From Gammaproteobacteria bacterium (GTDB lineage Bacteria > Pseudomonadota > Gammaproteobacteria > Eutrophobiales > Eutrophobiaceae), in the NCBI GenBank assembly GCA_965243105.1, contig CBDEUC010000001.1:346093-410092 (forward strand): a DNA stretch of 64,000 nt, in the 5' to 3' direction. The notes under the pieces are model-generated. The model was given only the letters and a program-made list of their open reading frames with translations. It made no database searches and was not told the DNA's origin. This document shows, in pieces, positions 24,278-28,581 of the stretch (the first letter of the stretch is position 1; each line of letters begins with the position of its first letter). Made by a program: the position numbers and the translations under genes.

Positions 24278-26158
24278 TTATTGTTGACTGGCTACCCAGT
24301 CGTTGACACGCTGTTCCAGTAGCAGCAGTGGTAATGCACCACCTCCGAGAACGGTGTCATGGAAACCTCGAATATCGAACTTGTCTCCCAGCTGCTCGGT
24401 GGCCTGGGCACGTAACTCGAGGATCTTCAGCATTCCAATTTTATAGCTGGTGGCCTGGCCGGGAAGGACGAGGTAGCGGCGAATCTCAGATCGTACCTGC
24501 GCTTCCGGTGCAGCAGAATTGGCAAGGAAATATTGCACTGCCTCTTCCTGTGACCAGCCCTTGGCATGCAGTCCGGTGTCGACCACGAGTCGAATGGCGC
24601 GCCATATCTCTGAACCGAGTCGGCCGAAGTCAGAATAAGGATCGGCATAGCTACCCGGAATTTCCTTGGCCAGTAGTTCGGAGTAAAGACCCCAGCCTTC
24701 CGCATAGGCGCCAAAGCCGGCCTGCGTGCGAAACATCGGTACGCCTTCCAGTTCCTGCGCGATAGAAATTTGCATGTGGTGACCAGGCAGGCCCTCATGG
24801 TAGGCAATCACCTCCAGTTCACTCTTTGGCATGGCCTTCATATCTGACAGGTGAGCATAGTAGATCCCGGGACGCGAGCCATCCGGGGTGCCTGCAAAGT
24901 AATGCTGTGCGCCGCCATCCTGTTCCCTGAAAGGCTCAACACGTTTTACCACCAGGTCTGCCTTGGGCAGGAGGCCAAAAAAGTTTGGCAGTTCCTTTTT
25001 TATCCTGTCGATTGCTGCAGTTGCCTTATCAATATAGCCCTGCCTGCCTTCATCATTGTTTGGAAAGTAAAAGCGCTCGTCGTCCTTGGAGTCTCTCAGC
25101 AGGGCAAAGAAGGCCTGCAGCTCACCCTCAAATCCTACAGATTCCTTGATGGCTTCCATTTCCTTGCGAAGTCGATCTACTTCAGCAAGGCCGATTTCAT
25201 GGATTTCATCTGCGGTCATGCGAGTGGTTGTCCAGTTGGCCAGCCGCTCGTTGTAAAACGCAGTGCCGTTGGGCAGGCTACCTACACCCTGGGCCTCTTC
25301 CGAGGCATTTTTAATATCTTCTTTTTGCCAGGCAACAAGATCGGCGTAGGCGGGTTTCCAGCTTTCTTCAAGCGCGCTTTTTACCTGGTGCGTGAGATCG
25401 TTCGCACCCTGCATGTTGATCTTTCCATTCTCAAGCAGTTCCTGGATTTTCTGCTTGGCGTTTGCCCAGATGTCGTTATCGGTGTCACTATCATCAAATG
25501 GAACACCGGAAATGAGCTTGGTGGACTCGTCAATCACAAACTCAAAGGCAAACCTGGGTGGCCTGGTACCGTGCGCTGCATTTTCCCTGGAGCGCTCTAT
25601 TAACTGGCCGATGGCACGACCGGTTTCCCTGATGCGCGATATGTAATCCAGCATGTCCTGTTCCGTCTCCACCGGGTGAAAACTGATCAGTACCTGCGGC
25701 AGGAAAGCATGGGCTGACTGCATCTGGTGAAACACGTAGCGGTTTAACCTGAAGTCAAAATTTTCCTCCGCCTGCTCCAGCTGGTATTTCCACAGGTCAT
25801 AGGATGTCCTGGCTTCCGCATCCAGCGCGTCGCGATTAAACATGCGTTCCATGTCGGCGACGGTGTTTTTTCGCCATTCAAGTTGTTCTATTTCAGATTC
25901 AAGCGAGAAATCATCCATCTTGCCGTAGTCTGTTTTACGTCCAAGAAAGGATTGCCAGATAGGGCTGAAGGCCAGCTCTTCCTCGAAACGAGCTTCAAAC
26001 CATTCATTGATACGTTCACTTTCACTTTTTTCCGTTACTACAGTTTCTGTAGCGGGGGCAGCCGTTTCAGTGCTGGTATCGGTGCTAGCGGGTGCAGGTG
26101 CTTTTTCACACCCGGCGCCAAGAAATGCTGTGAGCAGCACAATAAGCAATTGCCGCAT
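24278..26158 (-). CDS. DUF885 family lipoprotein
   Basis: Lipobox LGAGC; YHEG.PGHH.Q, AY.EGWGLYSE, RA.RLVVDTG.H, PGQA.SYK.G. Confidence 0.92.
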   Translation of the reverse strand: MRQLLIVLLTAFLGAGCEKAPAPASTDTSTETAAPATETVVTEKSESERINEWFEARFEEELAFSPIWQSFLGRKTDYGKMDDFSLESEIEQLEWRKNTVADMERMFNRDALDAEARTSYDLWKYQLEQAEENFDFRLNRYVFHQMQSAHAFLPQVLISFHPVETEQDMLDYISRIRETGRAIGQLIERSRENAAHGTRPPRFAFEFVIDESTKLISGVPFDDSDTDNDIWANAKQKIQELLENGKINMQGANDLTHQVKSALEESWKPAYADLVAWQKEDIKNASEEAQGVGSLPNGTAFYNERLANWTTTRMTADEIHEIGLAEVDRLRKEMEAIKESVGFEGELQAFFALLRDSKDDERFYFPNNDEGRQGYIDKATAAIDRIKKELPNFFGLLPKADLVVKRVEPFREQDGGAQHYFAGTPDGSRPGIYYAHLSDMKAMPKSELEVIAYHEGLPGHHMQISIAQELEGVPMFRTQAGFGAYAEGWGLYSELLAKEIPGSYADPYSDFGRLGSEIWRAIRLVVDTGLHAKGWSQEEAVQYFLANSAAPEAQVRSEIRRYLVLPGQATSYKIGMLKILELRAQATEQLGDKFDIRGFHDTVLGGGALPLLLLEQRVNDWVASQQ

Positions 26159-26372
26159 TTTTTATTCTCCCAAATCGATTAATCGGTGGATTGTATTGAA
26201 CTGTCATCCACAATGAAAGTCACTCGGACAGGCGAATAATACTGTTACGGGTCTGCCTCGCAGGCGTTTTTTCGTTAAAGCGAGCCTATTTGGAGATAAA
26301 CCTGTTAGACTAGGATGTGTAAGAGTACTGGATCGAAGTTTTACTGCAGATAGAAGACCCTGTTTATTTAGA

Positions 26373-26395
26373 TGGTGCCCAGGAGAGGACTTGAA
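26373..26395 (-). repeat. att core: 23-bp duplicate of tRNA-Leu 3' end
   Basis: TGGTGCCCAGGAGAGGACTTGAA identical to 28495-28517. Confidence 0.95.
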
Positions 26396-26426
26396 ACTAT
26401 TTCGGGTTCGCAATATACGTCTTAAT

Positions 26427-26439
26427 AATCAATGACATA
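26427..26439 (+). promoter_or_regulatory. IHF-like binding site between att core and arm repeats
   Basis: AATCAATGACATA vs consensus WATCAANNNNTTR (1 mismatch). Confidence 0.45.
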
Positions 26440-26457
26440 TCTGAGTCGCGATATTCC

Positions 26458-26475
26458 GCGGGACCCCAAAGGGAC
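26458..26475 (+). repeat. Arm-type-like repeats, left end
   Basis: GCGGGACCCC-AAAGGGAC; GGGAC cores 11 bp apart. Confidence 0.6.
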
Positions 26476-26550
26476 TGAGATAACAATAAAATCTGTACAA
26501 CTTTTAACGTAAAAAGCATACGGATTTCAGAGTTAGCGGGATATTTGGTA

Positions 26551-27126
26551 TCACGCTAGATGTTCCATAAGAAGGCCCTTCATTTTGTTACTTTTCGTAA
26601 TGAATTGTTCGCAGTGAGTCGTAAATAATTTTACTACTCCGTCTTTGTTGTTTTCTAATTCGTTTGTAAATCGTTTTTCGTCTTCGTTTAGCTCACAGAG
26701 ATAGTATCTGAGCGCCGGTATGGGTGCTGACATGCCGTCCATATCAGATCTTTGATAGAAAGCGGTGATGAAAAGTTCGCTATGGTGATTTGAATTCCTT
26801 AGCTTGGTAATGACTTTGTGTTCAAGAGTTACAGGCTGAATTATGTTAGTTCGGGCATCATCAAGATTTAAATCAAACGCACGGTTAATATTGGTGTAAA
26901 CGCGACGTTGTTTTTCTATGTAGTTGTGAGATTTTTCAAGATAACTCTCGACAAGAGATTCCCACTTTAATTCTTCAGTCATGCCTACGCCGGTATAGCG
27001 ATTAAAAATCTCATATTTCAGGAATAATTCAAAAAACTGAATTATTTCTACGCAACTTCGTTTTAGCATGTAGCCGTAATGCACAAAAGCAATTTGTATT
27101 TTTTCTTCAGCTTCTCTTTTTTTCAT
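26551..27126 (-). CDS. Hypothetical helical protein with HEPN-like RxxxxH motif
   Basis: 191 aa ORF; ITKLRNSNHH at 26782-26805; 28 bp downstream of the upstream ORF. Confidence 0.7.
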   Translation of the reverse strand: MKKREAEEKIQIAFVHYGYMLKRSCVEIIQFFELFLKYEIFNRYTGVGMTEELKWESLVESYLEKSHNYIEKQRRVYTNINRAFDLNLDDARTNIIQPVTLEHKVITKLRNSNHHSELFITAFYQRSDMDGMSAPIPALRYYLCELNEDEKRFTNELENNKDGVVKLFTTHCEQFITKSNKMKGLLMEHLA

Positions 27127-27154
27127 GGATAACTACAAATATAAGATTCCTGAG

Positions 27155-28168
27155 TTAACCTCTGTTAACTGGCTTAGTGAATAATTCAACAGCTTGTTGA
27201 ACCGCGTTTTGCCCAATCATACTATCCTTAGTATACCCAGTCCCCTGCGGTCCAAATATACAGGCAGCTGCGTGAACCAAAATTACTTCACTGTTTGGAG
27301 TATCGCCAGCTGCGTCAACTAGTGCCTTGTAGGTAAGAAGCGCGTTTTGTCGATGTCTATCGACAACCTGGTTGTGTTTGTGCGCATTGTAATTTCGTAT
27401 GCACACGAATAAGTATGTTGAGATGACAACGAAGATTAAAACTTTTGAAATTGCGATATGAAAGGGATCTGCTTCCTGAAGCCAGGGGATCAAGTGAAAA
27501 AATAGACTGCTGACTGCGTAACCCCCCAATATACCGCCAGTGATCAATATTCGAGTATGCCAAGTATCGGCATCTTCCTTGTGTTTTTTTACTGATGAAT
27601 CGAAATGGACAGCTTGTTGTGATACTCCTAACTCGCCAGCCGCTTGGCGAACACTTTCAAGCATGGAGTTTACACTTGATTCAGCCTTTGTAATTCGTTC
27701 AACAATTTCATTCGTATTTGATTCAATTTGCTCGATTGCACCTTTTGCCTCCTTTTCTAGTCGGCCGAAGTCTGTAACACGCTGAGCGGAATATGCAATG
27801 ATTGGCTGAAGAGTATCAAACACAGTTTGATAATGGTCTGTCAGGTTGGCCAGCAATGCTGTACGTGTACCTGCAGCGTTTTCTTGTGTGGATGTAAAAT
27901 CCAGTATGTCAGTAAATAACTTGTAGTGCTGTTCGGCAGTCTGAGTTAGTCGTACTAAATTTCGTTCTGGAAAATCACTTAATGCATCTAATGCAATTTG
28001 GCCATACAAATTAATTATTTTCTCTGCCGGCTCGACAGCTTCACCGAATGATAATGCACGGCCCAAATCAGCTTCTCTGACAAGTGAGTTTGCATCGAAC
28101 TCCTTAATTTTTCTGATTACATCAAGAGCTGTATCTAATTTTGTCTCTGGTGGGTTTTCATCAGCCAT
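27155..28168 (-). CDS. Hypothetical coiled-coil + 2-TM membrane protein
   Basis: 337 aa; AGGAGG RBS; heptad-like segment EKEAKGAIEQIE...; two hydrophobic segments; C-terminal NYNAHKHNQVVDRHRQNALLTY. Confidence 0.85.
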   Translation of the reverse strand: MADENPPETKLDTALDVIRKIKEFDANSLVREADLGRALSFGEAVEPAEKIINLYGQIALDALSDFPERNLVRLTQTAEQHYKLFTDILDFTSTQENAAGTRTALLANLTDHYQTVFDTLQPIIAYSAQRVTDFGRLEKEAKGAIEQIESNTNEIVERITKAESSVNSMLESVRQAAGELGVSQQAVHFDSSVKKHKEDADTWHTRILITGGILGGYAVSSLFFHLIPWLQEADPFHIAISKVLIFVVISTYLFVCIRNYNAHKHNQVVDRHRQNALLTYKALVDAAGDTPNSEVILVHAAACIFGPQGTGYTKDSMIGQNAVQQAVELFTKPVNRG

Positions 28169-28225
28169 TTGAACACCTCCTTCGTTCTCTAGCGTCTAAA
28201 AAGAATCAATACAATAAAGCACAAT

Positions 28226-28262
28226 AACCCGTAGAGGTAGTTATCCTCCACGGGGTTTTTCC
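28226..28262. terminator. Imperfect hairpin with T tract inside islet
   Basis: AACCCGTAGAGG-TAGTTAT-CCTCCACGGGGTT-TTT. Confidence 0.45.
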
Positions 28263-28360
28263 TCGCAAACATCAAATTGTATTGTAAGTCCCCAATTACT
28301 AAAGATAATTAGTTGTTCGTGAGTAAATTAGGGTCGAAGGTAAAAATCTAGCCAAATACT

Positions 28361-28400
28361 GCGGGACCCCAGCGGGACCATAACGGGACCAAAGGGACCA
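28361..28400 (+). repeat. Arm-type-like repeats, right end
   Basis: Four GGGAC cores at 28363, 28374, 28385, 28394; GCGGGACCCC identical to 26458-26467. Confidence 0.65.
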
Positions 28401-28494
28401 AAAACAGATGATTTTGAGAAAATGGAGAATTTCAGAAAAATCTTTGAAACGCAGGTATACTGCGTGTTTTAGAGTTTAGGATCAATTTTTGCAG

Positions 28495-28581
28495 TGGTGC
28501 CCAGGAGAGGACTTGAACCTCCACGGGGTTACCCCCACTAGCACCTGAAGCTAGCGCGTCTACCAATTCCGCCACCTGGGC
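28495..28581 (-). tRNA. tRNA-Leu (anticodon CAG)
   Basis: GCCCAGGTGGCGGAATTGGTAGACGCGCTAGCTT-CAG-GTGCTAG...GTTCAAGTCCTCTCCTGGGCACCA; long variable arm; encoded CCA. Confidence 0.98.

Follow-up and report, generated by a model that had tools for sequence, protein, structure and literature searches.

An integrase-less two-gene islet with candidate attachment-site arms at the 3' end of a tRNA-Leu gene in an uncultured marine gammaproteobacterium

Cis-mobilizable elements (CIMEs) are without integration or transfer genes, keep the attachment sites attL and attR, and are decay products of an integrative and conjugative element (ICE) or an integrative and mobilizable element (IME) (PMC5704250). We compared with such elements an islet at positions 26373-28517 of a 64,000-nucleotide stretch of a gammaproteobacterial genome (GenBank assembly GCA_965243105.1, contig CBDEUC010000001.1, positions 346,093 to 410,092; this whole stretch is hereafter called the window). 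Like the CIMEs related to ICESt1 and ICESt3 of Streptococcus thermophilus, the islet has attL and attR at the 3' end of its target gene, here tRNA-Leu(CAG), and no integration or transfer genes of its own. Accretion-type mobilization with an incoming ICE has been demonstrated for CIMEs. For the islet, whose host is an uncultured marine gammaproteobacterium, neither a parent element nor a tandem partner was seen. At the level of sequence, the islet thus has what characterizes a CIME, namely, no mobility genes and both attL and attR kept; as a leftover of integration it is genuine but of a fairly ordinary type. We put at about 0.6 the probability that it is a CIME-type element, integrase-less and left by a tyrosine-integrase crossover in the T-loop of tRNA-Leu, whose attachment (att) arms are still recognizable. 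Its non-autonomous character is proposed because neither an integrase nor an excisionase gene is present in the islet.

Other described systems share some of these features. Marine tRNA islands and tycheposon remnants also hold foreign cargo beside a tRNA gene and have a partial tRNA copy as their bound, and they are reported to decay, with cargo and partial tRNAs left behind in islands (bioRxiv 10.1101/2020.12.28.424599). However, tycheposons are defined by an integrase together with replication modules, none of which is in the islet, and the islet is a single unit and not part of a large island. An integron cassette is similar in concept only, being promoter-poor cargo with a recombination site whose recombinase is encoded elsewhere. 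The islet has no attC-type folded site, attI, or IntI, and no tyrosine recombinase is present in the window; in place of a folded site it has a double-stranded, tRNA-derived core with arms.

The only tRNA gene in the 64-kb window is tRNA-Leu(CAG), found on the minus strand by ARAGORN, and the Rfam tRNA model agrees (54.5 bits). The last 23 nt of this gene (TGGTGCCCAGGAGAGGACTTGAA on the plus strand) are repeated exactly, 23/23, at the other end of the islet. An earlier interpretation of this locus (the sequence-only reading) had reported this duplicate, and it stands as described, with the right copy lying within the tRNA gene. The repeat comprises the CCA end, the discriminator base, the 3' strand of the acceptor stem, the 3' strand of the T-stem, and the 7-nt T-loop, and the identity ends exactly at the 5' edge of the T-loop. 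Between the two copies lie 2,099 bp with a G+C content of 0.398, compared to 0.515 and 0.538 in the 5-kb flanks. The tRNA gene is intact despite the islet, and its sequence is identical to that of the tRNA in two relatives (contigs L178 and L190). As in tRNA-site genomic islands, the direct repeat corresponds to the 3' part of the undamaged gene. The features of the two ends are as follows.

26373-26395: left copy of the core, an attR-type junction and an exact repeat, which would be the displaced original 3' end of tRNA-Leu; it has the same place as the tRNA 3' end in the empty site of relative L189.
26396-26480, plus strand: P'-arm-like end of the islet, with a 64-nt spacer followed by GGGACC (26460-26465) and GGGACT (26471-26476).
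28361-28399, plus strand: P-arm-like array of four GGGACC sites, which start at 28363, 28374, 28385, and 28394, the first within GCGGGACCCCA.
28400-28494: spacer of 95 nt from the array to the core, rich in alternating A and T tracts by direct reading of the sequence, with a small hairpin at 28449-28465.
28495-28581, minus strand: tRNA-Leu(CAG); the right core copy, an attL-type junction, is formed by the last 23 nt of the gene (28495-28517).

To judge from the known behavior of tRNA-targeting integrases, a repeat that ends at the edge of the T-loop is what a tyrosine integrase crossing over in the T-loop would leave, and such a crossover is indicated here. Two other origins were considered and rejected. 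A transposon or CRISPR-associated transposon (CAST) end does not fit, since the end repeats are direct and the duplication is a tRNA end; the repeat search reported no terminal inverted repeats at the islet ends, and the short target-site duplication and terminal inverted repeats of a transposon or a miniature inverted-repeat transposable element (MITE) were not found. A Xer-dependent element was rejected because the site is not dif-like. The small hairpin in the spacer is followed, in the sense of the tRNA, by a T-rich run and is possibly a replacement terminator for tRNA-Leu, although a simple terminator scan did not call it.

The insertion is confirmed by related genomes in which the site is empty, a comparison that the sequence-only reading had proposed. 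The nearest relatives of the neighboring DUF885 protein in the protein collection are only about 70 to 73% identical, so there is no close strain to compare. Three related contigs (L178, L179, and L189) have the same DUF885/tRNA-Leu neighborhood with no insert. The order in L178 is rnr, tRNA-Leu(CAG), and DUF885, and L179 and L189 begin within or near the tRNA. In these distant relatives, whose DUF885 proteins are 71 to 72% identical, the distance from the tRNA end to DUF885 is 173 to 199 bp. The window DNA to the left of the left repeat aligns to the spacer between tRNA and DUF885 in L189 right up to the repeat, and the boundaries of the islet are therefore the repeats. By the empty sites and this alignment, a separate piece of foreign DNA has entered the tRNA-Leu gene at its 3' end.

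In a further relative, L190, two other genes (a phosphoenolpyruvate [PEP] mutase and a 185-aa membrane protein) separate tRNA-Leu(CAG) from DUF885. These genes are not bounded by the same ends as the islet. In the same contig (6543-9000), about 52 bp of sequence downstream of the tRNA is duplicated in tandem, together with the first 12 nt of the tRNA 3' end, at a distance of 124 bp. With a duplicated tRNA end and two extra genes present there in L190, the DUF885/tRNA-Leu locus is, on these contigs, variable between lineages. Two metagenomic contigs also bear on this flank. A 254-nt contig from a seawater metatranscriptome (run X5) is identical to window positions 26054-26307, which cover the 5' region of DUF885 and the upstream spacer. 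This contig and one from a coral metagenome (run X12) both stop at 26306/26307, 66 nt before the left repeat, and this may be a strain-variable point.

The islet contains only two open reading frames (ORFs), both on the minus strand and neither recombinase-like.

26551-27126, minus strand: cargo gene 2, 191 aa, of a very rare family.
27155-28168, minus strand: cargo gene 1, 337 aa, all-helical, including one long helix, and hydrophobic in a C-terminal region.

We searched stop-to-stop frames of at least 30 aa with a tyrosine-recombinase hidden Markov model (HMM) built from 14 integrases of the fetched loci. No integrase-like ORF or fragment was detected in the islet, as the sequence-only reading had stated, or in the 64-kb window, and the element contains no integrase gene. 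A cargo protein acting as the recombinase was rejected, since one protein is membrane/coiled-coil and the other HEPN-like, and both occur away from tRNAs. The same absence bears on an account in which the islet is an inert deletion relic, that is, a prophage or island with int and xis beside the P arm that lost everything except a selected accessory operon and whose att halves are now decaying. CIMEs are thought to originate by such decay (PMC5704250), and marine genomic islands commonly contain partial tRNAs and elements that have decayed (bioRxiv 10.1101/2020.12.28.424599). A 340-aa relative of cargo gene 1 (39% identity) lies between int/xis at the contig start and tail genes in a prophage-like contig (L196, 1-3765); by this gene order it occupies an accessory-gene position beside the attachment site, which is the position that such a deletion spares. 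However, no integrase fragment is left in the islet or the window, and the arms and core are intact, which is unexpected after long decay. We consider a relic with dead ends quite unlikely; it overlaps with the CIME-type reading and differs from it only by claiming that att function has been lost. If the islet is a relic only, it is a precisely bounded example of a streamlined marine bacterium keeping an accessory operon while shedding mobility genes.

The inner ends of the islet carry short repeats next to the core copies. On the plus strand, the left end has two GGGAC words, beginning at 26460 and, with a spacing of 11 bp, at 26471, and the right end has four, beginning at 28363, 28374, 28385, and 28394 (spacing of 11, 11, and 9 bp). 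The sequence-only reading had reported these as two left and four right cores mostly 11 bp apart. The first site of each group is inside a shared 11-mer, GCGGGACCCCA, and the sequence reported by that reading to occur at both inner ends, GCGGGACCCC, is indeed present at 26458-26467 and 28361-28370. Beyond these words, both ends share an imperfect 28-nt repeat with 79% identity. GGGAC is rarer than expected in the window (76 found versus 119 expected). Only 5 of the 1,020 pentamers in the window reach four copies within 40 bp, and GGGAC and GGACC among them represent this one array. The GGGAC arrays at both inner ends are far from chance.

When the two ends are joined on paper, they give four sites, 95 nt, the 23-nt core, 64 nt, and two sites, or about 244 bp in total (about 240 to 250). 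All GGGAC sites of this rebuilt attP are in one orientation, and the distance from the core is about 95 to 130 bp for the P-arm sites and about 65 to 80 bp for the P'-arm sites. The size and asymmetry of the rebuilt site are those of a lambda-type attP, in which the core is likewise flanked by two repeat-bearing arms of unequal length, the longer one with phased repeats. We infer that the GGGAC repeats are putative arm sites for the arm-binding domain of an integrase and maybe for an excisionase as well. Unlike lambda, the islet has no significant integration host factor (IHF) site and no int or xis, its core is a tRNA T-loop, and it uses one repeat word in one orientation. The lambda-type layout proposed by the sequence-only reading is supported for the arrays, which are where the P and P' arms would be, but not for the IHF-like site claimed between left core and left arm. 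The candidate for that site at 26427-26439 (AATCAATGACATA) is one base off the consensus WATCAANNNNTTR, and one-mismatch matches of this kind number 47 in the window versus 43 expected, so the match between core and arm is at chance frequency. Apart from the IHF site, the observation that started this analysis is real and in that sense partly confirmed. A literature search for a published GGGAC arm-type motif gave nothing relevant. The practical value of the rebuilt site is that of a defined substrate, with a core, two arms, and six candidate arm sites, for trying integrases.

Alternatively, the arrays could serve as operators through which the tRNA or the cargo operon is regulated, or could form a small satellite repeat, with the att-like layout coincidental apart from the core. 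The right array is about 195 to 230 bp upstream of the cargo start, and most of the matches listed in a scan of other genomes (see below) are 11-bp tandem or intergenic arrays with neither a tRNA nor an integrase (GGGACCAAGTC arrays, L047, and L058). Against this, both inner ends have the same word in one orientation, its distances from the core are like those in lambda, and there is no regulator gene in the islet. In addition, relatives of the cargo family in other contexts have no GGGAC array upstream of the gene, which indicates that the array belongs to the islet end and not to a cargo promoter. Arrays are also enriched just downstream of tRNA genes elsewhere. We regard the operator or satellite account as very unlikely.

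Phased GGGACC arrays were found in other genomes by scanning genome contigs for (GGGACC N5)x3. The scan gave more than 120 matches, mostly 11-bp tandem repeats or high-G+C DNA. Among the matches listed, 6 of the 174 scan loci have an array 56 to 67 nt downstream of a tRNA 3' end, compared to 0.49 expected for random placement within the same loci. These six loci (L006, L019, L042, L059, L076, and L106) involve tRNA-Pro, tRNA-Asp, and tRNA-Leu and belong to Streptomyces, an alphaproteobacterial metagenome-assembled genome (MAG), an actinobacterial MAG, and others. In L042, the array adjoins tRNA-Leu(GAG) and is oriented relative to it as the window array is to its own tRNA. In L019, from a Hyphococcus MAG, tRNA-Asp is followed by an array of three GGGACCA, xre, an excisionase-like xis, and an int with an Arm-DNA-bind_2 domain. 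L019 is like the islet in that a phased GGGACC(A) array lies tens of bases past a tRNA 3' end, but a recombination module is present there, the array is oppositely oriented relative to the tRNA and lies 56 nt instead of 95 nt from the tRNA end, and the tRNA and phylum are different. Other arrays lie 61 to 212 bp from integrases with Arm-DNA-bind_3 or Arm-DNA-bind_4 domains. The reading of the repeats as arm sites is supported by these tRNA-adjacent arrays, and phased GGGACC arrays near tRNA genes are probably, to judge from their neighbors, a recurrent att-arm feature of several unrelated integrase families. As a lead, such arrays mark putative attachment-site arms beside tRNA genes in several phyla.

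Taken with the core and the arms, the most likely course of events would be as follows. The islet would have been inserted by a heterobivalent (lambda-type) tyrosine integrase that exchanged strands in the T-loop of tRNA-Leu(CAG). A copy of the last 23 nt of the tRNA would have come with the element, leaving the gene intact, and the original 3' end would have been displaced to 26373-26395. Both halves of the former attP would remain, the P arm with four sites and the P' arm with two. Apart from the arms, the content of the islet would be a two-gene operon for a membrane/coiled-coil protein and a HEPN-like protein. Excision or transfer would be expected only with a matching integrase, acting in trans from another element or coming from one that integrates beside the islet.

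The cargo proteins gave nothing usable in Pfam, PADLOC, NCBIfam, PDB sequence, and PDB fold searches. The family of cargo gene 1 has at least 698 homologues of about 340 aa. One of these matches DUF6161 at 26.4 bits, just under the 27-bit cutoff. The AlphaFold2 model of cargo gene 1 (pLDDT of 80.7) is all-helical and has no PDB fold match. Relatives of this gene adjoin DUF1156 and helicase genes. The family of cargo gene 2 is found in only 8 clusters in 1.8 billion proteins. It keeps an LR(N/R)xxHH motif (LRNSNHH in the window copy), which resembles the HEPN motif RNxxxH. A 202-aa homologue (P0244) is encoded in a type I restriction-modification operon with the order hsdS, homologue, ParE toxin, small ORF, and hsdM (L193, 753-1361; L194, 725-1333). 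A 190-aa neighbor in L175 has no homology to cargo gene 2. On the basis of these gene neighborhoods, it is plausible that the cargo consists of two probable defense genes. The only close homologue of cargo gene 2 (P0242; 45% identity; L192, 464-1157) starts 19 nt after a tRNA-Leu(AAG) gene. It is A+T-rich in a G+C-rich host, on a contig too short to show ends, and looks like a second tRNA-Leu-associated insertion with this rare gene family.

Several findings weigh against the CIME-type reading with lambda-type arms. In five of the six tRNA-adjacent cases, the array is opposite in orientation relative to the tRNA. The integrases beside GGGACC arrays elsewhere have three different arm-binding domain families, and the hexamer is therefore not a marker of one integrase family. 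No sibling element with the same ends was detected in viral, metagenome, phage, or plasmid collections. Finally, simple integration does not predict the tRNA-like hairpin that lies between the four-site array and the cargo start.

28228-28257: hairpin CCCGTAGAGG-TAGTTAT-CCTCCACGGG.

This hairpin has the same AGAGG/CCTCC stem as the T-stem pair of the tRNA and a 7-nt loop of different sequence. Its part at 28245-28257 is an exact 13-nt copy of tRNA segment 28518-28530, directly beyond the core, and a match of such length was reached in 0 of 2,000 shuffles. The copy is not expected, since in simple integration the sequence 3' of the crossover alone is duplicated. Possible explanations for the hairpin, which resembles a terminator on both strands, are a second site for integrase binding, a junction of older date, and a terminator whose gene has been lost. 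The plus-strand form points to the P arm, where no plus-strand gene is left, a circumstance that favors the deletion relic discussed above.

The search for siblings covered sequence patterns and alignments. The pattern of an arm plus the tRNA-Leu end gave one chance match in coding DNA in metagenome contigs (L184) and none in viral contigs, where a looser tRNA-end pattern gave three chance matches only. The 23-mer core had no match in viral contigs, and a 17-mer had one, which is not a tRNA end. No match was obtained by blastn with the arm region against the phage collection or with the whole islet against the plasmid collection. The contexts of cargo relatives (L175 to L177, L188, and L193 to L198) showed no tRNA-Leu repeat and no GGGAC arrays. 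We also examined assembler contigs of the source sample, in which the organism is present at about 4x depth. DUF885, the islet, and the tRNA end are all on a single contig. At that depth, the contigs show neither a circle junction, which the sequence-only reading had suggested looking for in reads, nor an empty-site junction, and each arm occurs in one copy only. In the coral metagenome (X12), patches of both flanks are present at 94 to 100% identity with nothing on 26387-28339, and no contig crosses the junction; these patches hint at a coral-associated related population without the islet.

These results bear on the interpretation offered by the sequence-only reading, in which the islet is minimal by design, an attP plus cargo cassette moved in trans by a tRNA-Leu integrase and serving as a swappable defense slot. 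In its favor, two arms and one operon fill the islet with no pseudogene debris, the two repeats agree at 23/23 positions, none of the six GGGAC sites is damaged, and the composition of the islet has not drifted toward that of the host. The site is empty in relatives, the X12 coral population shows the flanks and no islet sequence, and the only close homologue of cargo gene 2 is also directly behind a tRNA-Leu gene. However, no partner integrase was found in the 64-kb window, the collections searched gave no further element in which such ends enclose other cargo, and the different cargo expected between the same ends in relatives was not found, as the genes at this locus in L190 lie outside such ends. 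The contigs at about 4x depth contain no circle or empty-site junction, and the coral-metagenome evidence comes with no junction contig. Overall, this interpretation is partly supported, and we consider a cassette minimal by design unlikely. A bolder version appears clearly doubtful. In it, working naked attP plus cargo cassettes would be exchanged among marine gammaproteobacteria by a helper or phage integrase at tRNA-Leu, the hairpin would be a decoy or regulatory integrase site, and the L192 homologue would be part of the same traffic. If movement in trans is true, the islet would be a tRNA-based counterpart of integron cassettes for defense genes, and such movement would bear on the exchange of immunity genes in bacteria without plasmids or prophages. 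A single case cannot decide between a relic and an element moved in trans.

Two groups of loci from the array scan are side observations. Arrays of the 11-mer GGGACCAAGTC in 3 to more than 6 copies occur in very different bacteria and in viral contigs (L003, L011, L020, L022, L045, L094, L099, L100, L137, and others); in none of these loci was an integrase-like ORF detected, or a tRNA within 1.5 kb of the array. In five IMG/VR contigs (L125, L136, L150, L151, and L167), a start codon is directly preceded by three to four GGGACC sites with an 11-bp phase (…GGGACCGGAGGCCATATGCC…), and this array looks like an operator overlapping the ribosome-binding site in related viral contigs.

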